Notes: generated by a model from the letters alone, not told the origin. 64,000 bases of DNA from Candidatus Woesearchaeota archaeon (GCA_043810355.1 JBDROB010000075.1:16565-80564); one strand, 5' to 3'; positions 13,611-64,000 are shown, numbered from the stretch's first letter. Made by a program: numbers and translations.

Positions 13611-14258
13611 CTATTTATCTGCATAAGCCCAGTTATTTAGAAACAGTTCAAAATATCCTAATCTAATTTTATCTTTTTCAAATCCAGCTAAAATTAGATA
13701 CTTTCTAATCTTCTTATGATTATAGCTTCCTTTGTGCTCTTCAATCTCCTCCTTGCTGATCAACCCTAGTCTTGCCATCACTCTTAACAATAAATCTGTC
13801 CAAGGGCAGGGAGTAGTTAGGATAAATCTTCCATTCTCTTTTAAAATCCTCTTGATCTCTTTCAAGACATTGACAATTATATCAGGCTCAATATGCTCAA
13901 ACACAGCCAGCATTGTTACAACATCAAAATGTTTTTCATGAAAAGGGATCTTAAACCCATTATCAATATTCTGTCCGATTATTTTTATATTATCCACTTT
14001 CTTTGCAGCACTGTCTATACCAATTTTCTCTTTAAATCTTGTATGTAATAAAAAATAGGGATAGCTTCCACATCCAATATCAAGTATCTTCCCTTCCCTA
14101 TGCCTTTTTGGAATGAGCTTGTTTGATATCTCTGCCCTCTTCTTAGATAGAAAATTTTCCAGTAATCCGAATCCTCTTGTGTGCTGGACCATTTTTTCAG
14201 AATAAATTTCATTCAGTGTTACTTCTTCAGCATATCTGCAAGCAATCCAAACAGCCAT
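13611..14258 (-). CDS. Class I SAM-dependent methyltransferase. The start may be the internal Met at ~14192, since 14258 overlaps the upstream GT2 by 40 nt.
   Basis: Motif I 'ILDIGCGSYPYF'. 'VVTMLAVFEHIEPD' post-I/II. Confidence 0.65.
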   Translation of the reverse strand: MAVWIACRYAEEVTLNEIYSEKMVQHTRGFGLLENFLSKKRAEISNKLIPKRHREGKILDIGCGSYPYFLLHTRFKEKIGIDSAAKKVDNIKIIGQNIDNGFKIPFHEKHFDVVTMLAVFEHIEPDIIVNVLKEIKRILKENGRFILTTPCPWTDLLLRVMARLGLISKEEIEEHKGSYNHKKIRKYLILAGFEKDKIRLGYFELFLNNWAYADK

Positions 14259-15115
14259 ATCTGAAGTCCTACTATTATGAATAATACCATTAATATTGAC
14301 ACATATGGATGCCCAACCTTTCCTGCTTCGATAAATTTGACAACAAGCCAGATTCCTAGCAATACCCCTACAAATATCATGAACATCCCGATTGTCCCAA
14401 ATATTTTCAATGGCTCATAATCCCTTATGATCCTTATTATATTCAGCCATGCTTTTGCCGCATACTCAAACGGATTGCTGATTAACCTGCTTTTTGTGCC
14501 TCCTCCTCTTTTTGCAAAATTTACAGGTATCTCTTTGATTGCAAACTTTTCTTTTGCACTTCGTATGATCTGTTCTTGAGTATATGTATGTGTTGAAGTT
14601 ATCTTGACCTTTTCAACAATATCTCTTGTAAATGCCCTAAATCCTGTCTGCCCATCTGTTATATTCAGTCTTGTTATGTTTGAGATTACTTTTGAAAATG
14701 CTTTATTACCTATTCTTTTGATAAGGGGCATGCTCTCTATTTTCCCCCTAAATCTGCTGCCAAGTACCAGGTCATACCCATTTTCAACCTCTTTGATTAA
14801 TCTTGGGATGTCTTCTGCATGATATTGTCCGTCTGCATCAGTGTGGATTATGACATCAAAATTCATTTTTAGGCATTCCTTCATCTCTGTCCTAAATGTT
14901 TCTGCTAGTCCATAATTTCTTTGATGAGATACAACAACAGCTCCTTTTTGTTCTGCAATGAATTTTGTATTATCATTGCTGCCATCATTGACAACTAATA
15001 TCTTGTATTGATAGTCAGTTTGGTCCATAACTTTCTTGATATTGTCAATGACCGGGCCTATTGTTTTCTCTTCATTATATGCAGGTATTGAGATAATAAC
15101 TCTAGTTACTTTCAT
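14219..15115 (-). CDS. GT2 glycosyltransferase, dolichyl-phosphate hexose synthase (Dpm1-like) with C-terminal TM helices.
   Basis: 'ISIPAYNEEKTIGPVIDNI...LVVNDGSNDNT...HTDADGQY' (DxD). Confidence 0.8.
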   Translation of the reverse strand: MKVTRVIISIPAYNEEKTIGPVIDNIKKVMDQTDYQYKILVVNDGSNDNTKFIAEQKGAVVVSHQRNYGLAETFRTEMKECLKMNFDVIIHTDADGQYHAEDIPRLIKEVENGYDLVLGSRFRGKIESMPLIKRIGNKAFSKVISNITRLNITDGQTGFRAFTRDIVEKVKITSTHTYTQEQIIRSAKEKFAIKEIPVNFAKRGGGTKSRLISNPFEYAAKAWLNIIRIIRDYEPLKIFGTIGMFMIFVGVLLGIWLVVKFIEAGKVGHPYVSILMVLFIIVGLQIWLFGLLADMLKK

Positions 15116-15222
15116 AATATTTAAGAATATTATTGGCTTTAAAAACCTTATTAAACTTAAGAATATAATGTCCTATTTATTATACATAAATATTTAAATA
15201 AAAGATTTCTTCTATTTCCATT

Positions 15223-17061
15223 ATGTCATTTGTAACAATCATATTATTCTTCATCTACATATATGGCTTAGGTTTCTCTATAACCTATTTTTTAAAGAAC
15301 TCTGAAAATTTCTGGGAAAGGAATATTATGAGATTAGGAATTGGATTAGGGGCATTCCCATTACTAGGTGTCCTGATCAACCTTCTCAGAATACCATTGG
15401 ATTGGAAAGTATTCCTTGGAATAAGTATTATACTTCCAATTGCTTTATACTTGTGGAAAAGGAAAAATCCTGATTTCAGCTCTGCTTTCAAGATTTCAAA
15501 ATCAAATATTTATATTCTTCTTGCTTTGATCATCTTCATAATCCATCTTGTTGTCTTTGTCCAAGGCTCATATGCTTATCCTTTTCATGAGGATGATGAC
15601 TCTTGGGAGCATGCAAGGTCAATAAAATATGTTGCTGAGACAAAGACTGCTTTTGAGCCAAAAGACAATAATATTTTTCATTATATTGATTCTTACCCTC
15701 CTGGATATGATATTCTGATGGGTATGTTTGTCCAGACTAGTGGTTCAGTCTATTGGACTATGAAATTTATGAATTCTTTGATTATTTCCTTAGGAATCCT
15801 TTTCTTCTATTTCTTTGCAAAAATATTCACTAAATCAAGAAAAAAAGCATTGTATGCCACAATTGTGTTAGCCCTTATTCCTTCATTCCTAACACATTTC
15901 ATTTGGGCTTATGGAATGGCTATTATCATGATTTTTCCATTATTTTATTGTCTTGAGATGATAAATTATGATAAAAAATGGATGTATCCATCTGCAATAG
16001 TTTTTGCAGGGATGTCTGTGACACAGCCTACCTCAACATTAAAGATTGGATTGATGTATATCATATATTGGATTATCAAGGTCTGGAGAAAGCATCCAAG
16101 TGCAAAAAAGATACTTGTTGCAGGAATTTTGGCTGTGATCCTTTCAACAGCATTTTGGTGGGGTCCTATGTTTATAAAACATGGTTGGCCTGATATTTTA
16201 CATTATGGACTTGATGTGAATCAGACTGGAAGAGATCCTTCAATCCTGAAGATTCAGGGTAGTGATGATCGTATCTTTCCGCCATCTGATTTCTTTTTTG
16301 CTAAAAAGACCAATATGATCAATGCTCCAAGGGGTTGGGGAATTGCTATATCATTGATTCTTATCTTGTCTTTGATATACATAGGATTTAGAAGAAGATC
16401 ATTGTTAAAAGAGGTAAATTTGTGGCTTCTGATAACAGTTGTCTGGTTTTTTTACATGCTTATCGGCTTGGAAAGCTATGCTCTTCCTGTCCAGATGATA
16501 GCCTTTAGATACTGGGCTTTGCTGGCAATCCCAGTTGCCTTGCTCACAGCTGAAGGGATTTTCCTTATTATCTCATTGCTGAAAGGATTTAAGATACCTC
16601 CTATTGCAACATTGATAGTCTTAATTTTGCTGATATTTGCAACTGCTGGCTATCATAAATATATTCATAATACTTCACCTAATTGGCCTGCAGGAACTGG
16701 TTGGTCTTCTCCTGATGAACTCCAAGGTTATCTCAATCTAAGAGACCTTCCTTCTGGAACAAAAATATTTACATTGACTCCTGCTGGAGATGCTTGGCTT
16801 ACTGGCTATGATATGTACACTTGCGGTTGGTGCAAGGATGAGTTGGATTTCAAATCCTCTGCAGTCAACAAGTCTCCTGAAGAAATCTACAATTTCATAA
16901 AGCCAAAGGGCTATGAGTATTTTATCCTAGACACAATTACAGCTGGTTATTATGGTGCTGACCAGACTAAAATTTTGATAGAAAAAACCCTGAACTCAAC
17001 TAATTTCATACCTCAGCAAAAATTCTCCACAAATGGCATGATTTTGTTTAAATTGTCTTAA
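15223..17061 (+). CDS. GT-C fold integral-membrane glycosyltransferase (ArnT/PMT_2-like, GT39/GT83-type).
   Basis: First-loop acidic motif 'HEDDDSWEHARS'. '...YPPGYDIL...SLGILFFYFFAKIFTKSRKKALYATIVLALIPSF'. At least 11 TM segments. Confidence 0.6.
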   Translation: MSFVTIILFFIYIYGLGFSITYFLKNSENFWERNIMRLGIGLGAFPLLGVLINLLRIPLDWKVFLGISIILPIALYLWKRKNPDFSSAFKISKSNIYILLALIIFIIHLVVFVQGSYAYPFHEDDDSWEHARSIKYVAETKTAFEPKDNNIFHYIDSYPPGYDILMGMFVQTSGSVYWTMKFMNSLIISLGILFFYFFAKIFTKSRKKALYATIVLALIPSFLTHFIWAYGMAIIMIFPLFYCLEMINYDKKWMYPSAIVFAGMSVTQPTSTLKIGLMYIIYWIIKVWRKHPSAKKILVAGILAVILSTAFWWGPMFIKHGWPDILHYGLDVNQTGRDPSILKIQGSDDRIFPPSDFFFAKKTNMINAPRGWGIAISLILILSLIYIGFRRRSLLKEVNLWLLITVVWFFYMLIGLESYALPVQMIAFRYWALLAIPVALLTAEGIFLIISLLKGFKIPPIATLIVLILLIFATAGYHKYIHNTSPNWPAGTGWSSPDELQGYLNLRDLPSGTKIFTLTPAGDAWLTGYDMYTCGWCKDELDFKSSAVNKSPEEIYNFIKPKGYEYFILDTITAGYYGADQTKILIEKTLNSTNFIPQQKFSTNGMILFKLS

Positions 17062-17747
17062 TCAACAAACCTATACTTGATCAGATAAAAGAATGCCTTT
17101 ATCCCGTCTCTCCATGTTATCTTCTTTCCTTCCTTGAAATCCCTGCAGTGATAGCTTATCGGAACTTCAACAATCTTGATCCTTTTCTTCAGGACTTTTG
17201 CAGTCACTTCTGGCTCAAAATCAAAGCGCTTTGCCCTTAGCCGTATATTTTTTATCACTTCAGCCTTAAAAACCTTGTAGCATGTCTCCATATCAGTGAT
17301 CCTTCCTCCAAAAAGCAGATTTGTAATTGCAGTCAATCCTAGATTGCCGATATAATGTATCCTGTATTTTGGCACTTTCTTGAGGTTGATAAACCTTGAT
17401 CCATATACAACAGATGCTTTTCCGCTTAATATTGGTTCTAATAATTGTGGATATTCATTGATGTCATATTCTAGGTCAGCATCCTGTATCATTATGATTT
17501 CTCCAGTTGCATTTTTTATCCCAGTCCTGATTGCAGCTCCTTTCCCTTTGTTCTTCTCATGGAATATTATTTTTATCTGTTTGTCATTGATAAGATGAAG
17601 TATCTTCCTTGTTCCATCTCTGCTTCCGTCATCAACTATTATTATCTCTTTGGATATATTGCCTATTTTCACATTTTTGACTCTCTTGATTACCTCAACT
17701 AAAGTCTTCTCTTCATTATAGGTTGGAATTATTATGCTTAATTTCAT
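17058..17747 (-). CDS. GT2 glycosyltransferase (Dpm1-like, soluble form).
   Basis: 'LSIIIPTYNEEKTLVEVIKRV...IIVDDGSRDGT...QDADLEYD'. Confidence 0.8.
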   Translation of the reverse strand: MKLSIIIPTYNEEKTLVEVIKRVKNVKIGNISKEIIIVDDGSRDGTRKILHLINDKQIKIIFHEKNKGKGAAIRTGIKNATGEIIMIQDADLEYDINEYPQLLEPILSGKASVVYGSRFINLKKVPKYRIHYIGNLGLTAITNLLFGGRITDMETCYKVFKAEVIKNIRLRAKRFDFEPEVTAKVLKKRIKIVEVPISYHCRDFKEGKKITWRDGIKAFFYLIKYRFVD

Positions 17748-17760
17748 TTTTCTCTCAAGA

Positions 17761-19275
17761 TTATGTTACACACACTGCTTTTTCTTCTTCTCCCTCAAAC
17801 ACTCTGTCTGCTTCTTGCTTGTTACCTGGCTTGAAGAATGAGAACAATGCATTCACTCCACTTAATAATATTTTTATGTCATCTACTGACCTTATTTTAG
17901 CAATCTTTCTTATCACATAGCCAGGCCTAAAATAAAATTTCTTGTACATTAGTTTATAGAGATCTTTGATATCATCTGCACTTAAAGTCTCTAATCTCAT
18001 CACAGGCTTTGCTAGTGTATAGTCATCCCAGTCATATGTCAATATCAGGTCTTTATTCTTTGCCCATTCAAACATTGCTGTGCCTGGAAATGGTGTTGTT
18101 ATGTTCACAATGAGTAAATCTGGATTCAGTTTATTCACAAACTTCACATTCTTCATGATTATCTCTTTATTGTCTCCTGGATTTCCTACCATGAACGCTA
18201 GCCTTGATTCAATCCCTGCTTTTTTTGTCCATTTGTTTGCATTCAAGACCTGTTCAACATTTGTTTTTTTGTTGATGTTCCTCAGCACATTCTCATCAAT
18301 ATTCTCAACACCATACATTATCTGGTGGCATCCTGCTTTTTTCATCTTCTGCAGCATCTCAAAATCAACATAATCCACTCTGGCAAAACATGTCCATGAG
18401 ATATCAACTTTATTCTCAAGCAACATATCGCATAGTTTTATGACATTCTGCCTGTTTACAGTGAATGTGTCATCATAGAATTGTATTTGTTTTACTCCAT
18501 AATTCTTTATCAGGTATTGTATCTCTTCAAAAATCTTTTCAGCAGACTTGAAAAACATCAATGTTCCTAATGTTTTTGAGCAGAATGTGCATCTTCCTGG
18601 GCATCCTCTTGATGTCATCATGCTCATTGCAGGCAATTTCTTATAGCTTCCTTTTGCAGGCTGATATTTTAAGACTGGAAGCAGGTCATATGCAGGCATT
18701 GGCATTTCATCCAGGTTCATGATTCTTTTTCTTGGTTTTGTTCTGACAGAAAATATTTTTCCATCTTTTTTTCTCTTAAACATGATTCCATTTATCTCTT
18801 CAAGTTTTTTATTTTTTAAAATCTCAGAAAGTGTTATCTCTCCTTCTCCTATGACTGCTATATCTATATTTTTGTTCTTAATGACCTCATCTGTTAAGAA
18901 TGTTGCATGCACTCCTCCTACAACAACTTTTGCCTTTGGAAAGAATTCCTTGCATATTTCAGCCAGTTTATACACTTTTTTTATATTGCAGGTAAGTGTA
19001 GTTAAACCAATAACCCTAATATCTGAAAATCTGCTAACAAATTCTTTGATAAAAAGAGGTCTAAAGCTTTCAACAGAAGGTGCATATATGTCACAGTCTA
19101 ATATCTGGATTGAGAATCCTTGTGATCTGATAAACCCAGCAAGATCTGCTAATCCAAGTGGTGGAAAGTTTGAATTGACCTCTTTCCATATGTTTTCCTC
19201 TTCCTTGTACCAGCTTGGAGGAGCTATCAGAAGGCAATCCAGTTTCTCCTTGCTTTTTTCTTCCTTTTCCATCAT
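17761..19275 (-). CDS. B12-binding radical SAM protein (class B). Possibly a sugar or lipid C-methyltransferase or another radical tailoring enzyme.
   Basis: CxxxCxxC 'CPGRCTFCS'. N-terminal Rossmann-like B12-binding region 'LLIAPPSW...VIGLTTLT...VVVGGVHATF'. Confidence 0.8.
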   Translation of the reverse strand: MMEKEEKSKEKLDCLLIAPPSWYKEEENIWKEVNSNFPPLGLADLAGFIRSQGFSIQILDCDIYAPSVESFRPLFIKEFVSRFSDIRVIGLTTLTCNIKKVYKLAEICKEFFPKAKVVVGGVHATFLTDEVIKNKNIDIAVIGEGEITLSEILKNKKLEEINGIMFKRKKDGKIFSVRTKPRKRIMNLDEMPMPAYDLLPVLKYQPAKGSYKKLPAMSMMTSRGCPGRCTFCSKTLGTLMFFKSAEKIFEEIQYLIKNYGVKQIQFYDDTFTVNRQNVIKLCDMLLENKVDISWTCFARVDYVDFEMLQKMKKAGCHQIMYGVENIDENVLRNINKKTNVEQVLNANKWTKKAGIESRLAFMVGNPGDNKEIIMKNVKFVNKLNPDLLIVNITTPFPGTAMFEWAKNKDLILTYDWDDYTLAKPVMRLETLSADDIKDLYKLMYKKFYFRPGYVIRKIAKIRSVDDIKILLSGVNALFSFFKPGNKQEADRVFEGEEEKAVCVT

Positions 19276-48310: not shown

Positions 48311-49309
48311 TCATGATAAGCTTTTTATTAATTCATCTCTTGTAATAGTGGCTGTTCCAACTTTTTCAATAGCAATACCTGCTCCATGATTCGCTAGATA
48401 TGCAGATGCATGGATATCTAGTTCAATATTGGCTAATGCCAATAATGAGATAACTGTATCGCCTGCTCCTGAAACATCAATAACAGATTTTGCCTTTGTA
48501 GGTTCTAATGAGTGATTATGATGATTATCATAGCTGAACATTCCTCTTTCACTTAGTGTGATGACTAAATATTCTGGAGATAATCTCTGCATCATTTCTC
48601 TTCCAATATCTATAATATTGTCAGCTCTGCCATTTAGTCTGAGTCCAGTGAATTGTTCAGCTTCGCTGAGATTGCAGCATACTAGTGTTGAGTTTTGATA
48701 GAATATAGCATTTGTTGGTTTCACTTCAGAATATACTTTGACACCTTTTTTTGTTGCATATTCTATTAATTCTCTGACAACAGGTTCTATTAATAGCCCT
48801 TTGTTATAATCAGATAATATTACTGCATCACTTTCATCAATACAAGGTTTTACACTGTCCAATAGCATTTGACCTGTCTTTTCAGATATTGGGCTTGTAT
48901 CTTCTTCATCAAATCTGGCAATTTGTTGTTGATGGGCCAATAGTCTCTGTTTTACTATAGTGCTCCTGTTATTTCCATTATATATAGGTATAAATGATAT
49001 TCCATATTGTCTGCATAATTCCTCTACCTTTCCACCATAAAAATCATTTCCTATCAATCCACATAAAGTAACTTGAGCATTTAATGCTGCTAGATTTTGT
49101 GCAACATTACCTCCTGCTCCAAGATTATAACTATGTCCATTAACTCTTACTAAAGGAGCAGCTGGTTGTTCTGGATTGATCCTTTCAACTTCTCCAATTA
49201 GGTAATGGTCTAGGGCAATATCTCCTAATACCAGAATCCTTCTTTTATCAAAATTGCTGATTGCTTTTCTCAGATCATAATCATTTGCCATTCTATTATT
49301 TCTCTCCAT
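48311..49309 (-). CDS. D-beta-D-heptose 7-phosphate kinase (HldE/RfaE domain I-like, PfkB ribokinase family), stand-alone.
   Basis: 'RRILVLGDIALDHYLIGEVERINPEQPAAPLV' matches the RfaE-I N-terminus. 'DVSGAGDTV' PfkB signature. Confidence 0.75.
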   Translation of the reverse strand: MERNNRMANDYDLRKAISNFDKRRILVLGDIALDHYLIGEVERINPEQPAAPLVRVNGHSYNLGAGGNVAQNLAALNAQVTLCGLIGNDFYGGKVEELCRQYGISFIPIYNGNNRSTIVKQRLLAHQQQIARFDEEDTSPISEKTGQMLLDSVKPCIDESDAVILSDYNKGLLIEPVVRELIEYATKKGVKVYSEVKPTNAIFYQNSTLVCCNLSEAEQFTGLRLNGRADNIIDIGREMMQRLSPEYLVITLSERGMFSYDNHHNHSLEPTKAKSVIDVSGAGDTVISLLALANIELDIHASAYLANHGAGIAIEKVGTATITRDELIKSLS

Positions 49310-49388: not shown

Positions 49389-49877
49389 TTAATGCCTTTT
49401 TCTTTCATTGATTCTGTCCAATGAATATCTAGCTATTGAATCAGCAATATCACTCCCAACTACTCCATTTGGGATAAAATCAATATATGGCCTTAAGCTT
49501 AAAAGCCCAGGATCTTTAGAATATGCTAAAAAGATTGGATCTGACTGTCTTTGCCCTGTTGATTGAATCTTAAGAATCCTTTTTACATCTTCTGGAAGTC
49601 CAGAATCAATTTGAGGGTCATCGATTACAACAAATCCATTCCATAAAGGGTATGATAATTGCTGTAAAAGCACTTTTCTTATATCATCAGGTCTATGGCC
49701 ATACTCTTTACCACCTATGGCAATAAATGCTCTTGATTCTGGCTTAACTCTTTCTGCTACTTTTTCAAATAATCCATATTTGCTGCTTGATTTTCCAAGC
49801 AATAATACATCTGATTTATTCAGGAATGCTGTTTCTGATCCTTCTACCATTTTTTTACCTTTCTTATTTAATAACAT
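49389..49877 (-). CDS. Hypothetical protein (162 aa). There is no convincing SIS/GmhA signature.
   Basis: ORF only. Confidence 0.4.
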   Translation of the reverse strand: MLLNKKGKKMVEGSETAFLNKSDVLLLGKSSSKYGLFEKVAERVKPESRAFIAIGGKEYGHRPDDIRKVLLQQLSYPLWNGFVVIDDPQIDSGLPEDVKRILKIQSTGQRQSDPIFLAYSKDPGLLSLRPYIDFIPNGVVGSDIADSIARYSLDRINERKRH

Positions 49878-53176: not shown

Positions 53177-56100
53177 TTATGCTTCCGTTGTATTAAATTC
53201 TCCACCAATCATATCACTTTCATTTATCATGACATCTTCACTACTATTGATTATTTCAATCTCAATATTTTCAACATTATCAATCCTAGTTGCATTATAT
53301 TCCTCCTCACTGATTTCCTCAATTGTCACTGTTTGCTGGAAAAAAGGATAGACATTCTCCTGTTTTCCTTCCCAGTCAACTTTCCAGACAACTATCCTCT
53401 GTCCCAAGACACTGTTCTCTTCACTGAATTTTTCAAAATGTTTTGTTCCATGCCCATCTAAGAAATATAATTGAGTGAATATGCTGTCAGTCTGCTCGAC
53501 ATTTGTTATGAGCCTTGAATAACCATCCTCAGTCGGTATCATCAGGACACCAAAATCCCCTCCATTCTCATAGTCCTTGGTGATTATTCCAGTCTCATTC
53601 AGTATGACTAATCTCTTAGGTTTCTCTATGCCTTGAGCTGAACTGAATACCAATTCCATTGATGTGGAGTTAAACAGTCCGGCGCCCCCTCCAAACAATG
53701 AGCAGATATACATCCCATCTTCTCCTGGTGTGCATGGATCAATTCCAGATGCATAGCTTGGCCAAGGTGCTGTCCAGTCATTTGCATCCCTTCCAGTTCC
53801 CAATGATTGAATTTCCAAATAAATTGCTTGGGCTTCATCATCTGTCATGTTGAATTCATCTTTTAGGTATTTGACACCTTTGTCCATATCAAGATTATTA
53901 TCTTTTATTGTATTGTACATTGTTGATCTCCTGAAATTCCAGATTCCAAAATGTCCCCAAACTCCGCTTTTTCCTATCATGTCAGATGAGGTTATAAAAT
54001 ATGCTTCCGGAGGCTCACAGTGTGTATATTCCAGTACATTTTCTGCCTGTTCTTCATTAAGCCCATACCCTTTCAATATTCTTCTTGCATCTTCTTTCTC
54101 TAAAACAATTATTTCATAGATTATATCTACACTCTTGTATGTCTCATTTATTATTTTGTCAAGCTCGTCAAATGCATTGTTGCTGCCGCAGTCAAGCATT
54201 CTTAATAATCCTACACTGACATCTTCATCAGATGTAAGGAGTGAATTGCCTACCCAATGGGCCATTGGCGAGTCTTGTGATGTTCCATCAAATGTTACAG
54301 GTCTGTCAGCAATATATTTGAACCAATGCCCGAAATCCCACCATGATGTTATGATTGCATTATTCTCACTCTCAAGCCTTATCTTTTCTAATGAGCTCCA
54401 CCATGCATCTGTCATGCTTGGTATTTCTTGATATGCTGTTGATTGTCCAGCCTGCAGAGGTTTGATAAGGATTATGGATAACAGTACAATGATGACTATT
54501 TGTGTGATTAGTTTGTTGATCTTTAATTCCTTTGATATTATTTTGACAACATACTGGTATATTATTCCCAAGGCAAGTCCTACTGCAATTGAAAATGCAG
54601 GGACAAATAACAATATGAATCTTATTCCTTTTATTCCAGAATATACTGTTGCAGCAAACCAAAGAACTAGCAGGATGCTGTATTTGATATAAGTCAATCC
54701 ACCATCCTTTTCTTTGATCAAAGCGATTACTCCTTTTATAAAAACAAGCACTATTCCTAAAACACTCAGGTAAAATAAGAATGCACCTCCTATATTCCCG
54801 ATCACTTCAGGAAATGATGATTCATTCTGCTCAGCAACTGTTGTGAATACATTTGGCCAGACAGATGTTGCCCCAATTTGCTTTAATGTGACAAATCCCA
54901 TAGGTTTTTCAACTACTGTATAGAACTCATTGAATCCTAGAAACATAGTGATAAAAATGCCTGAGAATAGTATGAACATAATTATGATGATAATATTATT
55001 TTTAACAAATTTTAATTTAAATATCTGGTTGATTTTTATCCCTTTTTTATAATTTAACATTAAGTAAACTGCTAGATAGCCAACAATATATATTATTGTA
55101 GATATTATCACAAGATAGAATATATACCACCATCCTCCTGCCCATGCAAAACCAAGAAGGCCGACTAAAAAGCCTGATAAGGCAGAATATATTATTTTCT
55201 TTTTTAGATCTTTCTCTTCAAACGCAATTAAAAAGAACCATGCTATATATAATGGCAATGTCACATTGTAAGCATCTGTATCTGAAAACCCGCCCATTGT
55301 CCTGTTGATAAATGCGCTGTGGATTGCAATTAAAAATCCAGCTACAAATCCTCCATAATTCCCTGCAAGCCTTCTTGTGATAAAAAATCCAGGGATCACT
55401 GCTAAAGCACTGATAAGAATTGGTATAAGGAAAATAAAACTCATTAGATCTAGGTCTCTGTTGAAAAACTGGAATGCTTTAAATAAATAAGCAGAAAGAT
55501 AAGCATGGAACATGTCAGGTACAATAAATCTTCCTAATGGTGCAAACATGTGATTATCAAATGGCTTTCCATCCCTTAGCTCGTCTCCTGGATGCCCATT
55601 GTTAATTATATTTCTTGCATGTCTTGTCCAATAATAAGGGTCAATTGCCAATAGGTAAGTGAATTCTCCGATAACCTCTCCTTTGCTGTTTGTGATATCT
55701 CGCCTTAATCTTGATTTAAACTGGTTTGATGAAGCTGATATTGCATTATCAACTTCCTTTTTGTTTTCACTCAGGATTTTTTCAAACTCTTTCTCAATTA
55801 TTTTTGCTTTATTCTCATCAGGAAGATTTGGATATTCATTATTGACTTTATTCTCAACCTGGGCTCTTATCCCATTATATATATTGTCTCTTGCCCAAAC
55901 ATCTGTTATCGGCAATATTGCTGACTGATATCTAAGATTAGCGCTGAAATAGACACAGAACAGTAGTGAAAATATGATAAGGATTGTTGGAATGATCCAA
56001 GGTTTATTTTTTATATACCCATAACCTTTTTTTATTGATTTTGTCACATCAGAAAATTCTTCATCCTTTTCTTCATCTTTGCTTTCTTCCTTTTTGTTCC

Positions 56101-56476
56101 CCTTTTTGAAAATATTTTTTATACCGGAAAAATCAATGTTGAAATCCTCATCTTTCTCTGCCTTTTCATTATCTTCAACAAAATCTTTCTTTTCCTTGAT
56201 AATTTGCATTTTCTTCTCAGCTTCTTCAGTCTGCCTTTTCTCCTTATTGTAGCCAGGTTCTTCAGCTTTCTCACTAATATTTTCAGCCTCTAATCTCCTT
56301 AGCTCTTCTTTTTTCCTCTCTATCTCTTCATGGATATCTTTTTTATCTTTTTTCTTCTCATCCAGAGATTTATCATCATCGCTAAATGATTTACCTACTT
56401 TCTTGAAGAATCCTTTTACTTTTTTTATATCAAATGAAATCTCTTCATCATCAAAATCATCATCCAAAGACATCAC
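53177..56476 (-). CDS. aglB: Oligosaccharyltransferase AglB (STT3 family) with an unusual ~165-aa Lys/Glu/Asp-rich N-terminal cytoplasmic extension. GTG at 56476 and ATG at 56473 are both candidate starts.
   Basis: 'ITSWWDFGHWFKY' (WWDYG motif). First-loop 'LLAIDPYYWTRHARN'. 13 TM segments plus a large C-terminal domain. Confidence 0.85.
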   Translation of the reverse strand: MMSLDDDFDDEEISFDIKKVKGFFKKVGKSFSDDDKSLDEKKKDKKDIHEEIERKKEELRRLEAENISEKAEEPGYNKEKRQTEEAEKKMQIIKEKKDFVEDNEKAEKDEDFNIDFSGIKNIFKKGNKKEESKDEEKDEEFSDVTKSIKKGYGYIKNKPWIIPTILIIFSLLFCVYFSANLRYQSAILPITDVWARDNIYNGIRAQVENKVNNEYPNLPDENKAKIIEKEFEKILSENKKEVDNAISASSNQFKSRLRRDITNSKGEVIGEFTYLLAIDPYYWTRHARNIINNGHPGDELRDGKPFDNHMFAPLGRFIVPDMFHAYLSAYLFKAFQFFNRDLDLMSFIFLIPILISALAVIPGFFITRRLAGNYGGFVAGFLIAIHSAFINRTMGGFSDTDAYNVTLPLYIAWFFLIAFEEKDLKKKIIYSALSGFLVGLLGFAWAGGWWYIFYLVIISTIIYIVGYLAVYLMLNYKKGIKINQIFKLKFVKNNIIIIIMFILFSGIFITMFLGFNEFYTVVEKPMGFVTLKQIGATSVWPNVFTTVAEQNESSFPEVIGNIGGAFLFYLSVLGIVLVFIKGVIALIKEKDGGLTYIKYSILLVLWFAATVYSGIKGIRFILLFVPAFSIAVGLALGIIYQYVVKIISKELKINKLITQIVIIVLLSIILIKPLQAGQSTAYQEIPSMTDAWWSSLEKIRLESENNAIITSWWDFGHWFKYIADRPVTFDGTSQDSPMAHWVGNSLLTSDEDVSVGLLRMLDCGSNNAFDELDKIINETYKSVDIIYEIIVLEKEDARRILKGYGLNEEQAENVLEYTHCEPPEAYFITSSDMIGKSGVWGHFGIWNFRRSTMYNTIKDNNLDMDKGVKYLKDEFNMTDDEAQAIYLEIQSLGTGRDANDWTAPWPSYASGIDPCTPGEDGMYICSLFGGGAGLFNSTSMELVFSSAQGIEKPKRLVILNETGIITKDYENGGDFGVLMIPTEDGYSRLITNVEQTDSIFTQLYFLDGHGTKHFEKFSEENSVLGQRIVVWKVDWEGKQENVYPFFQQTVTIEEISEEEYNATRIDNVENIEIEIINSSEDVMINESDMIGGEFNTTEA

Positions 56477-56516
56477 CTTGTCAATAACTAATTAAATTGT
56501 TTTATCAATTGTCTGA

Positions 56517-56552
56517 TTAATGGTTTAATTAATGGTTTAATTAATGGTTTAA
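56517..56552. repeat. Three perfect tandem copies of the 12-mer ttaatggtttaa, 40-76 nt upstream of the aglB start (minus-strand promoter region).
   Basis: Direct reading. Confidence 0.7.
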
Positions 56553-56628
56553 TTGTTTCCCCTCAGTATATATAATAGGATAGGGAATTATTCTGCTTTT
56601 ATAAAAGTTTGTTTTAGATTAGTATTTG

Positions 56629-57729: not shown

Positions 57730-57945
57730 GAAACAGAGAGAATGACTAATAATATTTAATTCTAATTAATTTAATAATCAAAAACCTCTTATTAAAAAAA
57801 ACCAGAAAGTATCTATTATAAAATAGTTATATCATATTAGTACTTTATAATAGTATCAATACAAAAGATTTAAATATGTAATAGATATTTCTACCATACA
57901 ATTAGATAATAATTTTTGAAAAACAACTTTTAGAAGGGGATATAT

Positions 57946-60390
57946 ATGACTAATAAAATTAAAGAAATCAAACAAGATTATGTTTCTAGAGCAACATACA
58001 AGGATTTGGATGCAACTCAAGCAGATGCAATTTATAATGCATTTCAGGCAACAACACATAACAGTGAAGGGAAAAAACTTACTCTTCAAGAAAGAAGAAA
58101 ATCAGTTGCTGACGAATTTGGTGTCAAGTATGGTACTGTCGGAACAGTTGCAAGATACCAAGGAAGAGATTCCTCACAATTAGATAGGTCTGTTTCTCAA
58201 TTATCAGAAACAGATATTGAAAAAGCTCGTCAGAGATATAAACATTCTGATGATTCTGTTGATACAATTTTAGGAGACCTAAATCTTACTGCAAAGGCTT
58301 TTTATTCAGGAGTACTTGAAGGTTTTGATTATAGGAGAAGTGATGATAAGCCTCGTCTGGCAAGGATGGCAAAAGCTCGGCAAAAAGCTAATGGATATAC
58401 CACTTCTCCAGCTGACATAGCTGAAGTTGTTGATGCACCAGAAGATCAGCCTGCTTTCAGATATCTTGCTGAACCTCAAGAAAGTTCTGCTAAACCAGGA
58501 AATCAAACAAAAAGTATAGAATCAAAATCAATTGTTGACTTTAGTTATGATAATCCAGATCAATCTGTTGTTGACACTAGATTAATAGGTCATTTTTTAG
58601 TTTCAAAAGCTGCTTCAGCAGAAAGGCATGGGGATCATGGACCAGAAAGTGGACCAGTAACTCAAGCAAAGCCTTTAGAAGCTGTTGTTGGAGAAGCTAA
58701 TCCAGTTTATGCAGGGGGAAGAGTTCCTGATGATTCATCAAGGTCCAAATATGTTTCTGATGTTAGAACTCCTGAAGTTACAATGCATGCACCAGATGGT
58801 CCAAGAGCTGAGGGAAGAGGTCCTTCTGATGATTCTCATGCTCGAGGTGATGCTAGTGGCCATGATGACAGAGTTATTTTAGGAGAAGATCATAGTTCTA
58901 GACCTGTTGAAGAACCAAGGTATTCAGGCAGTGGCTCAGGAGATGGTTCAGGTGGAGACAGTTCATTACCTCCAGAAAGTACAGAAAGACCAGCCAGAAT
59001 TTGGTATCAAACTTGGAAAGGTAAATTAGTATCAGGTTTGACTGCTGCTGCAATGCTTGCAGTTTCATTTGGTGGCGGATGGTTTGCTCGAGGAATGTAT
59101 AATCCAAGTCAAGCTGCTGCTGGATCTCTAGATCCTGCTCCTATAGCTGCTGAAGCGCCTGAAGTACCTACACATCCATTAGGAGGAGTCATTCCAGGTT
59201 TCCCAGATCCTAATTCAATTGAAGATCATGTAAAAAGCCAATATAATGGAGAAGGTGGATTTGATTTAAGAAAGCACTTATGGGAGACTCTTGTTCCAGG
59301 TTCAGAAGATTCTGGAAGAAAGCCTTATACAGGAAGTTCAGAACAGAATGAGGCATTCTTAATGTTTTTGAGGACTTTGAATCCTGATATGGTTAAGGCT
59401 GCAGTTGCTTCTTACGATGCACCAGAAGAACCTGCTGCTCCAGTTGTCCAACCGGCACCAATACCTGCAGAGAACCCAACTGTAGCACCTGTTGCACAGT
59501 CAGCACCAGCAGCTCCATTGGCAGGTTTCCCAGATCCTAATTCAATTGTTGACTGGCTGACAAGTAATTATAATGATGCTGATCAAGGATTAAGAGCATA
59601 TTTATGGGAAGCTTTTGCTCCTGAACCAATCCAAAGAAGTTTAGGGGATGAATATCAAGGAAGATCATTGACACCTGAACAAAGGCAATTACAAAATAAT
59701 TGGTTACTTGGATTCTTAAAAATGAGAAATGATCAAAGACCTCAAGATATTACTGAAGCGATTGCTGATTATAGTCTTGGAATAGAAAGTGGAGCGCCTT
59801 TAGAGGCTTATGAAGGATCAGGTTCAGAAGAGCAACCAACTCTGGCACCTTTAGAGGAGATTACAGTAGGTGGACCTGCCGAAGTTATTGTTCCTCCAGC
59901 AGTTTTAACTGCAATCCAGATTCAAAATATTGGAGACATGTTTGAGATCCCTTTCAGAGGAACTTCAATTTATAATTTGAGTCAGATTGATTCAAGTGAT
60001 AATAGGCTACCAAGCAATCCAACACCTGTTTCAGCTTTAGTGGGTAACTATGATAGTAATGCTGACGGAAATATTGACAGTGTTGCTGAGTTGAGCACAT
60101 TCATTTTAGGATTGACAACAAGAGGTGGGCTTGATTCCCCTGTTCCAGGTGAGTCAGATGAATCTTTTGTTAGGCTTGTAGCTAATGCTGGTTTTGGACC
60201 AGATGTCGCTTCTCAATTAAGGTCTGCATTAAATACAGAGGAAGTCTCAAATGAAGAATTGAATAGGGCTTCAGAAGTTGCTTTAAGATTAGGGGCTGCT
60301 ATTCAGACAGAGACTCCATTATATGATAATGGCACAGATTTAGTGATTGCAGAACCAGAAATCGCAATTAAATATTTTAATGGATTTTAG
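57946..60390 (+). CDS. Membrane-anchored protein. It has an N-terminal cytoplasmic region with an HTH-like segment, one TM helix, and an extracellular domain with two ~90-aa 'GFPDPNSI' repeats and a dockerin/EF-hand-like Ca-binding loop. GC is higher than the surroundings.
   Basis: 'LTLQERRKSVADEFGVKYGTVGTVARY' HTH-like. TM 'LVSGLTAAAMLAVSFGGGWFA'. Repeats 'GVIPGFPDPNSIEDHV...' and 'APLAGFPDPNSIVDWL...'. 'YDSNADGNIDSVAELSTFILGL'. Confidence 0.55.
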   Translation: MTNKIKEIKQDYVSRATYKDLDATQADAIYNAFQATTHNSEGKKLTLQERRKSVADEFGVKYGTVGTVARYQGRDSSQLDRSVSQLSETDIEKARQRYKHSDDSVDTILGDLNLTAKAFYSGVLEGFDYRRSDDKPRLARMAKARQKANGYTTSPADIAEVVDAPEDQPAFRYLAEPQESSAKPGNQTKSIESKSIVDFSYDNPDQSVVDTRLIGHFLVSKAASAERHGDHGPESGPVTQAKPLEAVVGEANPVYAGGRVPDDSSRSKYVSDVRTPEVTMHAPDGPRAEGRGPSDDSHARGDASGHDDRVILGEDHSSRPVEEPRYSGSGSGDGSGGDSSLPPESTERPARIWYQTWKGKLVSGLTAAAMLAVSFGGGWFARGMYNPSQAAAGSLDPAPIAAEAPEVPTHPLGGVIPGFPDPNSIEDHVKSQYNGEGGFDLRKHLWETLVPGSEDSGRKPYTGSSEQNEAFLMFLRTLNPDMVKAAVASYDAPEEPAAPVVQPAPIPAENPTVAPVAQSAPAAPLAGFPDPNSIVDWLTSNYNDADQGLRAYLWEAFAPEPIQRSLGDEYQGRSLTPEQRQLQNNWLLGFLKMRNDQRPQDITEAIADYSLGIESGAPLEAYEGSGSEEQPTLAPLEEITVGGPAEVIVPPAVLTAIQIQNIGDMFEIPFRGTSIYNLSQIDSSDNRLPSNPTPVSALVGNYDSNADGNIDSVAELSTFILGLTTRGGLDSPVPGESDESFVRLVANAGFGPDVASQLRSALNTEEVSNEELNRASEVALRLGAAIQTETPLYDNGTDLVIAEPEIAIKYFNGF

Positions 60391-60402
60391 CCAGGTGATC
60401 AA

Positions 60403-61779
60403 ATGAAAGGATATGATATGACCAGAAGGGGATTTTTAGCAGCAGCAGCAACTGCATTAGCAGGATGTGCAACAACATATGATCAATCTCAACTATCAGG
60501 ACGACATCCAGTTCCTGGACAGAGAGAACCTACTCCTATAGGAGATCAAGCTTTGTCTTTAGAGGCAAAGATTCCAGAAGGGGATGTTGCAGTTCTTTAT
60601 GATTATGTCAAGGATCACCTTCCAGGTGGAGACAGATATTTTGTTCCGTTCATTGAGCAAGGAATTGCACAAGCCTTTGCAGGTTATGTTCCAGCGCCGG
60701 CAAAAGCTGGAGTAAGAAATATTAATTTTGGAGACAATGAAAGGACTGGTTTTCTTTCAAAACCTGAATCTGCAGCACTTTACACTTATTTGTTTGAGAG
60801 ATTTATGGAAGATGTCCAGCAGGTTGCTCATCTTTCAATTAATCCAGAGAGGACAAATGGTGTTACAGACGTTTTTGTTTATCATAATGGGCCAAGGATG
60901 CCGAGCATTAATTACACTTCAAGAGAAGTGAAAGGTTGGAATAAGAAGACAACTGAGAAAGATACTGTTTACAATTCAATTGATCTTTGTTTTACAAATG
61001 CTGTTGAAGTCAGGCATAAGGTAAGGAATTATAGGGGTCCTGTTGAGTTTTTTATCAATGCAGCTTTGCAGGGATATAATACAACAGCTTCTCTTGGTGA
61101 GCCAATTATTGGTGTCGCTGGTTATACTGCAGGTGCAGCTACAAGAGGGGCATTGACATGGCTTTTCCACAAAAAGGATGAGCAAGATGCATTCTATGAT
61201 GCTAATGTTGATCTTGGTTGGGGTTCCCAGAATCTTGGACCAGCTCAGAAGATGTGGGAGACATTGAGCAATCATAATATGGAAAGCCCAGTTGTCTATC
61301 TGGCGCCTATTGAGTCAAAACCAGGAAGTGTAGATACAATGTTGATGGTTCTTGCAAATAATCCTAATTTTGCAGTACAACCTTTTCCAACACCAAATTA
61401 TGATCCAGAGACTGGAAGAGTCATGGGTATGAATATTGTTTCACCTCCACAGTATGGTGATAATTTTGCAAAGAATCTTGTTATAAGTATGTTGGGAGAA
61501 ATGGCAGATGCATATGTTAGGGGCTTGTTGATTGAAGATTTGATCCTTGATAAGCTTGAGGATGACAAGCAATTGCTGCCTTTTGGAGTTCCGATTCCAA
61601 TTACAAGGATTTTACCTTTGATAATGCCTTTGCCGATTCCATTCTGTCCTAGACCAAGTCCAATGATAGGTGGAGGTTGGTTTGGAGGCGGTGCTTTTGG
61701 AGGAGCAGGTTTAGGTGGAGCTGGACTTTTAGGAGGAGGATTTACTGGTGGAGGAGCGTTAATTCCAGGTCCATTATAA
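60403..61779 (+). CDS. Secreted Tat lipoprotein with a bacterial-type lipobox and a Gly-rich C-terminal tail. Function unknown.
   Basis: 'MTRRGFLAAAATALAGCATT' has the twin-arginine and the L-A-G-C lipobox. C-terminal 'GGGWFGGGAFGGAGLGGAGLLGGGFTGGGA'. Confidence 0.6.
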   Translation: MKGYDMTRRGFLAAAATALAGCATTYDQSQLSGRHPVPGQREPTPIGDQALSLEAKIPEGDVAVLYDYVKDHLPGGDRYFVPFIEQGIAQAFAGYVPAPAKAGVRNINFGDNERTGFLSKPESAALYTYLFERFMEDVQQVAHLSINPERTNGVTDVFVYHNGPRMPSINYTSREVKGWNKKTTEKDTVYNSIDLCFTNAVEVRHKVRNYRGPVEFFINAALQGYNTTASLGEPIIGVAGYTAGAATRGALTWLFHKKDEQDAFYDANVDLGWGSQNLGPAQKMWETLSNHNMESPVVYLAPIESKPGSVDTMLMVLANNPNFAVQPFPTPNYDPETGRVMGMNIVSPPQYGDNFAKNLVISMLGEMADAYVRGLLIEDLILDKLEDDKQLLPFGVPIPITRILPLIMPLPIPFCPRPSPMIGGGWFGGGAFGGAGLGGAGLLGGGFTGGGALIPGPL

Positions 61780-61848: not shown

Positions 61849-64000
61849 ATGAAAAAAATACTATTTATTATGCCATTTTTAGCTGTTCTTTTAGCAGCAA
61901 ATGTTTTTGCAGTAGCGGACATAACATTTAATTTTAATGTCAACAATGTTGAATCAAAGTTCTATACTTGTCTCGACATTAACTGTGATACTGTCAGCTC
62001 AAGTCCATTCTCATATTCTGGATCAACCTCTAATGGGCATATGCTGATCTCATTCCCTTCATGTCTATTGTCCCCATTTGGTTATGCAGGTTATTTCATT
62101 GTCCCAGCTACAAATCCAGCTGATACTGGTTATATACCTATTGAAGGTATTGCTACATTCCACACTTTTTGCAATCCTGGACATGCTTCAGGAAGTGTTG
62201 ATATTGATTTTGACAGAGTTGCAAATTGCGCCTCTACAATTGATGAATTCACAATCACAAATGATCTTTATGCTAATGAGCCTTTGCAGGTTAATGTTTC
62301 TGCTTCATTAGATGCAGCAACTCATTCAGCTTTCCAAGACGCTCATAATAATGTAGGATATATCCCTCTAGCATATAGGGATATCTATTATTCTGCAGAT
62401 ACTACTGTATCTTTGACAATCAAGAAAGATGGTCAGGTTGTTAATCAGCAGATGACTTATTTTGACGCTGCTCATGGTAACCCAATCTTTATGGATGAAG
62501 TTAAAGATGTTGAATATTCATGGGTCCCTGCTGAAGACGGACAATATGAGGCAACTGTAAGGACTGTTGTTACAGACAATCAATGTTCCTCAAATATCCC
62601 TTTGTCATCAAGTAAATTCTTTGGTGTGCTTCCAGGAAGGCCTACAAATGAATGTTACACAATCATTAATGGTTTGAGGACAACTGACCCTTATCCAGTT
62701 GCAGGAGACACTGTAACAGTTGAGTATAACAAGATAAGCAATTATGCTAATCCACAACATGCTTTGACATCAGTTCCTACTGATATTGATTATGAAGTGA
62801 GAAATTCAGCTTATCAGATTATTTTATCTGGTTCAGCTTCACTTCCAGCAAATCCTAATGAAGTTGATCCAACAACACATTCATTCCAATGGGTTGCTCC
62901 TTATGAGGATGTTTTTACAATGGAAGTGGCAGGAACTGCTGACTCACCTCTTTGTGACGGAAAGCCTAATCCAACTGAGACTGCTCAGGAAGAGATTTAT
63001 GTTGCTCCAGCTCCAGTCTATGAGGTTACTTTCATAATCTCAGATGATATGACTGCAGCAAGAATCCAAGGTGCAACTGTTTCATCTAATGGTCAGACAG
63101 CTGTAACTGATTCAAATGGTGTTGCTGTTATCGGTGGATACGTTAATGGTCACTATACATATGATGTTACTCATCCACAATACCTACCAATTGAAGGAGA
63201 ATTTGACATAACAAATGCAGATGCCACTGTTTCAAGAGCTATGCACAAGGCAAATACACCTCCAATTATAACTAATATTCCAGATGTTTCATTCCCTGAA
63301 GACACAGTGCATAATTCTCTGGATCTTGACCTTTATGTTCAGGATGAAGAGGATCTTGATGCTGATCTATCATGGACATCTAATCAATTGCCTAATGTTG
63401 GTGTATCAATCAATCCAACAACTCATATTGTTACATTTACACCTAGTCCAGGATTTAATGGACCAGCAGGAACAGTAACATTCACAGTTCAAGATACAGG
63501 TGGATTAACAGATTCAGATGCAATTTCAGTGACTGTCACTCCTGTTAATGATGCTCCAACAATCAGTGGATTGCCTGATAAGACATTGCAGGAAGATGCA
63601 TCTTTAAATAATGCTTTTAACTTGAATGATTTTGCATCTGATCCAGATCATTCTGATTCTTTATTGACTTACTCTTTGACAACTATAACTAATGGAAATA
63701 AATGTGGAGTTACAATTGATGGGAATGATAATATTGACATAAATCCTGATTTTAATTTTAACGGAATATGTGATGTTACTGTTAGAGTTGAGGATCCTTT
63801 AGGAGCTTCTGACACAGATACTTTTAGAGTTACTGTCACTCCAGTTAATGACGCTCCTGTTATTGGTTCATTACCTGATCAGACTCTTGCAGAAGACACA
63901 ACAAAGCCAAATGCGTTTAATCTTAATAATTTTGCTAGTGATCCTGATAATACTGATGCGCAATTGACTTATACTTTAACATCAGTTTCAAATACTAATC
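61849..64000 (+). CDS. Large secreted surface (adhesin-like) protein, 3'-partial because it runs off the window. It has a signal peptide and tandem Ig/cadherin-like 'VTVTPVNDAP' repeat domains. Not in the ORF track because there is no stop in the window.
   Basis: Manual translation from the ATG at 61849 stays open to base 64000. 'MKKILFIMPFLAVLLAANVFAVAD' signal. Repeats 'VTVTPVNDAPTISGLPDKTLQEDAS...' and 'VTVTPVNDAPVIGSLPDQTLAEDTT...'. Confidence 0.65.
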   Translation, partial: MKKILFIMPFLAVLLAANVFAVADITFNFNVNNVESKFYTCLDINCDTVSSSPFSYSGSTSNGHMLISFPSCLLSPFGYAGYFIVPATNPADTGYIPIEGIATFHTFCNPGHASGSVDIDFDRVANCASTIDEFTITNDLYANEPLQVNVSASLDAATHSAFQDAHNNVGYIPLAYRDIYYSADTTVSLTIKKDGQVVNQQMTYFDAAHGNPIFMDEVKDVEYSWVPAEDGQYEATVRTVVTDNQCSSNIPLSSSKFFGVLPGRPTNECYTIINGLRTTDPYPVAGDTVTVEYNKISNYANPQHALTSVPTDIDYEVRNSAYQIILSGSASLPANPNEVDPTTHSFQWVAPYEDVFTMEVAGTADSPLCDGKPNPTETAQEEIYVAPAPVYEVTFIISDDMTAARIQGATVSSNGQTAVTDSNGVAVIGGYVNGHYTYDVTHPQYLPIEGEFDITNADATVSRAMHKANTPPIITNIPDVSFPEDTVHNSLDLDLYVQDEEDLDADLSWTSNQLPNVGVSINPTTHIVTFTPSPGFNGPAGTVTFTVQDTGGLTDSDAISVTVTPVNDAPTISGLPDKTLQEDASLNNAFNLNDFASDPDHSDSLLTYSLTTITNGNKCGVTIDGNDNIDINPDFNFNGICDVTVRVEDPLGASDTDTFRVTVTPVNDAPVIGSLPDQTLAEDTTKPNAFNLNNFASDPDNTDAQLTYTLTSVSNTN

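Follow-up and report, generated by a model that had tools for sequence, protein, structure and literature searches.

Co-component regulators such as ToxR/ToxS, VtrA/VtrC and TcpP/TcpH pair a single-pass membrane protein, which has a cytoplasmic N-terminal helical domain, a transmembrane (TM) helix and an extracytoplasmic domain, with an exported partner that is encoded downstream and co-transcribed, and the extracytoplasmic domains and partners diverge beyond sequence recognition (PMC9214523). In archaea, transmembrane transcription regulators were reported in 367 of 404 species; they are mostly single-pass proteins, and the helix-turn-helix (HTH) is their most common DNA-binding domain (PMC10269533). 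For example, the membrane-bound ArnR and ArnR1 regulate surface structures in Sulfolobus, and ArnR combines an HTH, a HAMP-like and a sensing domain with two C-terminal TM helices and lacks a large ectodomain (PMC6396743). Here, we analyzed a gene of partly similar layout in a 64,000-nucleotide (nt) stretch of DNA from Candidatus Woesearchaeota archaeon (GCA_043810355.1 JBDROB010000075.1:16565-80564), hereafter the window, to which all coordinates refer. Features are on the plus strand unless stated otherwise. The gene (57946..60390) is predicted to encode a bitopic membrane protein of 814 amino acids (aa), identical to a database entry (P0001, hypothetical protein ABII01_07110 of a Candidatus Woesearchaeota metagenome-assembled genome); it starts with ATG and is preceded by a Shine-Dalgarno-like AGGGGA at 57935-57940. 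An earlier sequence-only reading had described it as a higher-GC gene for a ToxR/CadC-like regulator or a surface-anchoring protein with a dockerin-like loop. Every motif quoted in that reading is present in the translated protein, and its observations were confirmed, and its interpretation supported, in part. It also held that either kind of protein would be unusual in archaea. Given the wide occurrence of transmembrane regulators and the example of ArnR/ArnR1, the class is not unusual; an unrecognized N-terminal domain joined to an exchangeable cassette would be. Woesearchaeota and other DPANN archaea presumably rely on contact with other cells, and this locus is a compact and testable candidate for how they recognize partners or regulate their surface.

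The protein family is known from three Woesearchaeota genomes, all metagenome-derived, and is lineage-restricted. As the sequence-only reading had advised, homologs and their genomic partners were sought; the two homologs found, P0002 (716 aa) in a near-relative locus, L001, and P0003 (820 aa) in a distant locus, L002, both lie in the gene order of the window. This order is the same in 3/3 loci: a flavin adenine dinucleotide (FAD) reductase gene on the minus strand, the homolog of our target gene, a gene for a lipoprotein of 458-498 aa (gene 2) and a gene for a giant Big_9/cadherin-like protein (gene 3). The last three form a conserved cluster, which the target gene opens. What is new here, and of real interest, is a sharply bounded cassette that comprises the ectodomain and the lipoprotein. 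The hypervariable block is ~2.9 kb long (~58840..61735, delimited by nucleotide identity to L001) and contains the linker preceding the TM helix, the helix itself, the complete ectodomain and gene 2 as far as its Gly-rich tail. Within it, identity to L001 is 0.31-0.58, which is the level of unrelated sequences, versus 0.78-0.97 on either side, and the edges are sharp; identity is back at 0.97 by 61813 and then stays near 0.9 through gene 3. The flanking genes and spacers are 84-92% identical to L001 in DNA, with synonymous divergence (dS) of 0.37-0.64 and nonsynonymous to synonymous ratios (dN/dS) of 0.01-0.17, and the segment for the N-terminal domain (N-domain) is 83% identical. At the protein level, the ectodomains of the two loci are unrelated and the lipoproteins 24% identical, versus 93% for the adhesin encoded by gene 3 and 84% for the reductase. 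In other words, the cytoplasmic domain and the adhesin are constant, and the exposed pair is replaced as a unit between genomes with ~90% identity elsewhere.

The relationships of the cassette also differ from those of its flanks. The gene 2 product aligns with its distant L002 homolog at 30% identity and 189 bits versus 83 bits for the near L001 homolog, whereas the flanks (reductase and gene 3) are 52-56% identical to L002 versus 84-93% to L001. The window cassette is thus nearer to that of L002 than to that of L001, and a C-terminal ectodomain module (aa 659-783, 59920..60294), detected by BLASTP (24% identity over 127 aa, pairwise E=4e-8) and tblastn, is common to the target and P0003 and is not found in P0002. 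The sharp edges and the incongruence between cassette and flanks argue for recombinational replacement or ancient allelic types rather than for steady fast drift. A diversity-generating retroelement was also considered and rejected: no direct repeat of the template-repeat/variable-repeat kind touches the gene in the 64-kb window, and the variable block is 2.9 kb rather than ~100 nt; not every open reading frame was checked for a reverse transcriptase. No silent cassette copies were found within the window.

Gene 2 (60403..61779) encodes a predicted lipoprotein of 458 aa with a Tat-like (twin-arginine translocation) TRRGFL motif, a lipobox LAGC and a Pro-rich, then Gly-rich C-terminal tail. It starts 12 nt past the target stop codon, and this gap and the shared composition suggest that the two genes are co-transcribed. 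The lipobox Cys22 is invariant in 3/3 loci (the syntenic lipobox proteins are encoded at 12153-13649 in L001 and 3753-5219 in L002) and the Tat-like RR motif is present in 2/3; the TIGR01409 Tat signal scored 15.2 bits, slightly below its 16.7-bit cutoff. The protein had no match in Pfam, and its family is confined to the same genomes as the target family. This C-terminus is unusual. Its Gly-rich tail, with GGGFTGGGALIPGP at the end, is conserved in DNA and marks the 3' edge of the cassette; we presume from its appearance that the tail is unlike a PGF-CTERM signal. Gene 3 (61849..64000) runs off the window end and encodes a giant surface protein in which a signal peptide is accompanied, by Pfam and NCBIfam, by CarboxypepD_reg-like, Big_9, cadherin-like and tandem-95 repeat domains. 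Its L001 homolog (13732-17985) has 1417 aa. Unlike the two genes directly upstream, gene 3 is not hypervariable (93% aa identity to L001, 56% to L002, dN/dS 0.10).

The restriction of the family to these genomes was seen in several searches. A word-indexed search of 5.8 billion clusters returned only the target itself and P0002, and hmmsearch with an N-terminal profile, run exhaustively on 1.84 billion representatives, added only P0003 (N-domain E=2e-14), the N-domain being the sole part recovered in this way. A GTDB genome scan gave only the known P0002 contig, and no further members were present in IMG/VR, in JGI metagenomes (searched with the N-domain profile and the ectodomain) or in phage records (tblastn). 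A word-indexed search with the ectodomain alone was empty and missed the parent protein, that is, its positive control failed, so this negative result is weak.

The layout of the protein fits a single-pass topology with the N-terminus inside and the C-terminus outside, as predicted from hydropathy and flanking charges. A conserved and presumably cytoplasmic N-domain (aa 1-165, 57946..58440; 74% identical to P0002 and 33% to P0003) is followed by an acidic linker rich in Ser, Gly, Asp and Pro (~190 aa, aa 166-355, 58441..59010), which, judged by composition and a net charge of -13, is probably disordered. The linker carries indels between homologs, with an indel zone at 58390-58660 relative to L001, and contains a conserved motif, PLEAVVGEAnPVYAGGRVPD...VRTPEVTM..P.GPRAE (aa 243-289, 58672..58812), which borders the variable cassette on its 5' side. 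An island of 84% nucleotide identity to L001 (58660-58749) covers the start of this motif inside the otherwise diverged linker; dN/dS in the 60-codon block around the motif is near 1.4, which is not significant at such a size. P0003 has a possibly related 'ELPAVVGGNVGGY' directly after its N-domain. The predicted TM helix, LVSGLTAAAMLAVSFGGGWF (aa 361-380, 59026..59085), reaches only a moderate hydrophobicity (Kyte-Doolittle 19-residue mean 1.42); flank charges of +4 on the N-side, RPARIWYQTWKGK, and ~0 on the C-side orient it N-in. No other TM-like segment lies ahead of the ectodomain. An equivalent hydrophobic segment is present in both homologs (Kyte-Doolittle 1.95 in P0002 and 1.35 in P0003), and this hydropathy-based prediction agrees with the single TM helix proposed from the sequence alone. 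With its three prolines, a second hydrophobic stretch (aa 639-657) is an improbable TM helix, and no N-terminal signal peptide was found in the target. The ectodomain is acidic (net charge ~ -40) with Ala/Pro-rich spacers.

The N-domain is the part in which a DNA-binding function could reside. It shows that the target is a real gene under purifying selection: its dN/dS is 0.37 (dS 0.38), versus 0.01-0.17 in the flanking genes at similar dS. In an AlphaFold2 (AF2) model of aa 1-170, the domain is all-helical, with a mean predicted local distance difference test score (pLDDT) of 68 and core blocks at 75-85. The modeled helices form one unit of H23-35/H47-58/H62-70 and a second of H88-100/H105-112/H116-123, after which comes a basic helix, H135-148. 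Such a succession of two three-helix units within ~130 aa is compatible with the tandem tri-helical HTHs of the paired/Psq/CENP-B/pogo and resolvase types, and a pattern read directly from the target, A-x-x-F-G-V-x-x-x-T-V-x-x-V, matches classic helix-turn-helix spacing. Residues 97-126 of P0003 gave a sub-threshold HTH_psq match (E=0.0023-0.0085), one family member gave HTH_7 at E=0.098, and hhalign placed 'RRKSVADEFGVKYGTVGTVAR' in register with the HTHs of CENP-B (the comparison sequence was verified as 1HLV) and Hin at P=0.03-0.04. Many of the non-significant matches of the model in BFVD were HTH or DNA-binding proteins, some of them matched over ~50 residues at 2.6-3.7 A. The domain differs from the tandem HTH proteins in that all these scores are below significance, the target itself has no match, and an internal duplication of the two units was not detectable. 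The HTH character claimed in the sequence-only reading is therefore only weakly hinted at, and an HTH-like fold is plausible at roughly even chances.

Compared with the systems introduced above, the locus resembles ToxR/ToxS-type pairs in its predicted N-in single-pass protein, in which a TM helix joins a helical cytoplasmic N-terminal domain to an extracytoplasmic one, in the exported partner encoded directly downstream (its co-transcription being suggested by the 12-nt gap), in the proximity to surface or virulence-type genes, and in the loss of similarity in extracytoplasmic parts while the cytoplasmic domain is still recognizable. It differs in the absence of Trans_reg_C, in a much longer acidic linker (~190 aa), in a DNA binding that is only putative and in its archaeal host; the partner is a lipobox protein of 458-498 aa rather than a small lipocalin-like protein, and the edges of divergence are sharp and recombination-like. 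With ArnR and ArnR1, the target shares an archaeal host, membrane anchoring, an N-terminal helical cytoplasmic domain (an HTH in ArnR) and an association with surface structures. In contrast to ArnR, its single TM helix is central, its ectodomain is 430 aa long and it has a partner lipoprotein; no sequence similarity between the two proteins was detected.

Since ectodomain and lipoprotein vary together in every genome compared (n=3), the two most likely bind to one another at the cell surface. We tentatively favor, as possible but short of probable, a reading in which a variable ectodomain-lipoprotein pair sits on a conserved cytoplasmic domain and works like the ToxR/ToxS-type co-component regulators. 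The pair would form a variable surface receptor, and the conserved N-domain would be its constant output or anchor. The membrane-tethered N-domain may bind DNA, with its activity or stability set by the extracytoplasmic domain and the co-transcribed partner, and what it would likely regulate is its own operon and the adhesin gene next to it. If such a receptor and membrane-tethered regulator were confirmed, the co-component design would be extended from enteric bacteria to archaea, and the N-domain would represent a new DNA-binding family. A more specific form, in which this is a DPANN counterpart of the co-component systems with an unrecognized DNA-binding fold, whose cassette-swapped sensor module controls the giant adhesin and serves as a host- or partner-recognition switch of an episymbiont, is doubtful, and we give it a small chance.

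Several points weigh against the co-component reading. Searches of Pfam, NCBIfam, PHROGs and PDB sequences with the full-length target gave no match, the N-domain alignment used as a profile against PDB found nothing relevant, and the best Foldseek hits of the N-domain model were at E=1.7 (PDB) and 0.37 (BFVD), none significant. An OmpR/PhoB-type winged helix was also not detected: Trans_reg_C had no Pfam match with the whole protein (E<=1) or with the N-domain (E<=10), and the AF2 model has no beta-wing. Because this winged helix is missing, membership in the ToxR/CadC family fails; an analogy with ToxR/ToxS at the level of the operon is still the best functional model. The N-domain is hydrophilic and near neutral (+2), and many DNA-binding domains are basic. 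Its model was built on a very shallow, 3-sequence alignment, the TM helix was predicted from a simple hydropathy scale, and the ectodomain model, also from a very shallow alignment, has a pLDDT of 42 and is unusable, so that an interaction of ectodomain and lipoprotein is deduced from how the two co-vary in three genomes only. The acidic linker exceeds those of ToxR or CadC in length, and the lipoprotein is much larger than ToxS or VtrC.

The main alternative, which we regard as rather unlikely but to be taken seriously, is a structural surface complex that has no transcriptional role and either anchors or organizes the giant adhesin or is part of an episymbiont attachment apparatus. The cytoplasmic domain would then bind a cytoplasmic or cytoskeletal partner, and the cassette would vary through exposure to hosts or viruses (receptor or antigenic variation). 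The conserved clustering with a Big_9/cadherin-like adhesin beside an AglB/glycan locus is consistent with such a complex, as are an acidic ectodomain with Ala/Pro-rich spacers, as found in many wall- or surface-spanning proteins, and the sharp-edged replacement, which is typical of surface-exposed loci; the near-neutral N-domain with no significant DNA-binding signature also points in this direction. However, conservation is highest in the cytoplasmic part of the protein, whose weak similarity is to HTH domains, and the adhesin is not variable (93% identity, dN/dS 0.10), so the variable pair does not simply track it. If the complex is purely structural, it would mark a surface locus under strong diversifying pressure, for example, a virus receptor or a host-specificity determinant.

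The N-in bitopic protein with a secreted downstream partner also recalls regulated proteolysis of the RseA/RseB, MucA/MucB or RsgI-like kind, to which we assign only a slim chance. Here, the lipoprotein would shield the ectodomain until a signal leads to cleavage of the ectodomain and then within the membrane, releasing the N-domain, and the conserved linker motif would act as a degron or cleavage site. A short conserved motif in a variable linker near the membrane agrees with this idea, and weak, non-significant Foldseek matches included complexes of extracytoplasmic function sigma factors with anti-sigma factors. These matches, however, had E>5, no anti-sigma family matched in Pfam, protease genes were not seen in the cluster and, to our knowledge, archaea lack sigma factors. 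Thus, the target was not assigned to anti-sigma factors of the RseA, RsgI or zf-HC2 type (no Pfam match, Foldseek E>5).

A C-terminal part that is replaced together with the downstream gene behind a conserved junction motif (aa 243-289) is reminiscent of CdiA-CT/CdiI and Rhs, and the cassette might accordingly be polymorphic-toxin-like or serve self/non-self recognition; we consider this quite improbable. In the target, the N-part lacks a signal peptide and a secretion or delivery domain and is placed on the cytoplasmic side of the TM helix, no toxin or immunity family matched in Pfam or PHROGs, and no orphan or silent cassettes were found nearby. In addition, the partner is a large homologous lipoprotein (458-498 aa) in 3/3 loci rather than one of a set of small unrelated immunity proteins. 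For these reasons, we did not place the protein among polymorphic toxin/immunity systems.

The remaining features of the ectodomain bear on the surface-anchoring alternative of the sequence-only reading. Its two repeats, GFPDPNSI...LWE (aa 408-500, 59167..59445, and aa 521-619, 59506..59802), are real: internal alignment of the ~95-aa pair gave a local score of 118 versus 27.9+/-5.0 for shuffled sequences (z=17.9), and the repeat is also seen in DNA (repeat D4). The first 27 nt of the repeats are identical (59195-59221 vs 59522-59548), and elsewhere protein identity is ~30%, which points to a recent gene conversion or else to a strong constraint on the GFPDPNSI motif. The proposed calcium-binding loop did not hold up. 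The 'DSNADGNIDSVAEL' segment (aa 703-716, 60052..60093) is a single DxNxDGxID-like stretch followed by a predicted helix, in which it resembles type I dockerins and EF-hands, and its loose 9-residue core occurs in 1.3% of shuffled sequences. However, Ala stands at loop position 12 in place of Asp or Glu, and both PS00018 (EF-hand) and PS00448 (dockerin) fail because of it; the target had no Dockerin or EF-hand match in Pfam at E<=1. In the alignment with P0003, the 'YDSNADG' half of the loop is a gap and only 'NIDSxxxL' is conserved. A type I dockerin was rejected on these grounds (no Pfam Dockerin_1, no PS00448, a single loop instead of two ~22-residue segments, and no conservation in P0003), and so was an EF-hand, a 12-residue loop that usually comes in pairs and would require the position-12 acidic ligand and a pattern or profile match.

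The sequence-only reading had also taken the gene for a stretch of about 45% GC between flanks of 25-30%. GC is indeed raised, although the difference is smaller: 0.399 in the target gene versus 0.338 in the first part of the window (1-57729; z=5.3), and no stretch of the gene's length in these first 57.7 kb has a GC above 0.365. Single 60-nt stretches inside the gene range from 0.25 to 0.55, and the only flank as low as was claimed is the upstream spacer (216 nt, 0.185). Nor does the rise stop at 60390, as GC is also raised in gene 2 (0.41) and gene 3 (0.37) up to the window end; it covers at least three genes. It is limited to codon positions 1 and 2 (0.56 and 0.47 versus 0.41 and 0.30 for the host). 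At position 3 (GC3), the target has 0.16 versus a host mean of 0.316+/-0.044, and 0.282 would be expected from host per-amino-acid codon preferences (z=-8.2); the gene favors the codons that the host favors, for example, AGA/AGG, GCA/GCT and CCA/CCT. The raised GC is explained by a protein that is rich in Ala, Pro, Gly, Ser and Asp and poor in Lys, Ile and Asn (Gly+Ala+Arg+Pro 0.32 vs 0.18; Phe+Tyr+Ile+Asn+Lys 0.18 vs 0.36). This signature is found in each segment of the protein and in the syntenic genes of a second genome. Because GC3 lies below that of the host and below expectation, a higher-GC donor is unsupported, and with the host codon preferences and the shared signature of the syntenic locus, a horizontally acquired higher-GC island was rejected. 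The composition is thus explained purely by amino-acid bias, an outcome that the sequence-only reading had itself named among those that would refute it; the bias is unusual and conserved in the homologous locus. It should be noted that in an AT-rich genome amino-acid composition alone can raise local GC, and GC3 should be checked before horizontal transfer is invoked. A surface scaffold with a calcium-binding dockerin or EF-hand from a higher-GC donor, which the single DxNxDGxID core and the raised overall GC would have favored, is accordingly hardly credible given the failed PROSITE and Pfam matches, the single loop unconserved in P0003, the low GC3 with host-like codon preferences and the lack of a detected cohesin-like partner.

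No tRNA genes were found in the window. The only other markedly low-GC3 genes in it (0.18-0.19, z=-3.4 to -4.9) are on the minus strand and encode a PfkB-family sugar kinase (48311-49309) and a 162-aa open reading frame product (49389-49877). These are not classic highly expressed genes, and low GC3 was therefore discarded as a marker of high expression. Both sit in an apparent heptose/sugar-nucleotide pathway with a HAD phosphatase, a cytidylyltransferase-like protein and a GT9 heptosyltransferase; pathways of this type are, in our view, more common in bacteria than in archaea.

The region upstream of the gene contains several elements that together provide leads to a candidate operator/promoter of the cluster. 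A sequence which we take to be a B recognition element (BRE) and TATA box, by comparison with the archaeal consensus TTTAWATA, is AAAAGA-TTTAAATA (57863..57876), ~70 nt upstream of the ATG; it is conserved in 3/3 loci, the AAAG-TTTAAATA-GTAATA block being present also in L002. Just upstream of it lies a 20-nt imperfect palindrome (CTATTATAAAATAGTTATAT / ATATTAGTACTTTATAATAG, 57813..57853), which is 85% complementary and has a shorter version in L001. Palindromes are common in AT-rich DNA, and this one is at best a weak operator candidate. In the presumed 5' leader, a block ATTAGATAATA (57901..57911) is identical at 10/11 positions in 3/3 loci, and an Rfam scan of the conserved leader matched no riboswitch or non-coding RNA family. 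Intergenic conservation between the window and L001 equals the ~90% genomic baseline and was not considered special; only the conservation with L002 is meaningful (identity 0.60 vs 0.46+/-0.05 for shuffled sequences, z=3).

On the other side of this region, the upstream neighbors on the minus strand are the FAD protein, which is geranylgeranyl-reductase-like, and then a 1099-aa AglB/STT3 oligosaccharyltransferase, and past AglB lie glycosyltransferases and sugar-nucleotide enzymes. These neighbors identify the region as an N-glycosylation and surface-glycan locus of a low-GC DPANN archaeon. The AglB/STT3 homolog (53177-56476, minus strand) begins with an extension in which Lys, Glu and Asp are abundant, its STT3 match starting only at residue 273, and is similar in size to that of L001 (1106 aa). 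The gap between AglB and the FAD reductase gene is only ~150 nt in the window (56477-56628), which lacks a pair of genes present at the corresponding position in L001 (6921-7793 and 7837-8601). This pair encodes two paralogs that are 31% identical to each other and have no Pfam match, and both carry the signature of high GC at codon positions 1 and 2 and low GC3.

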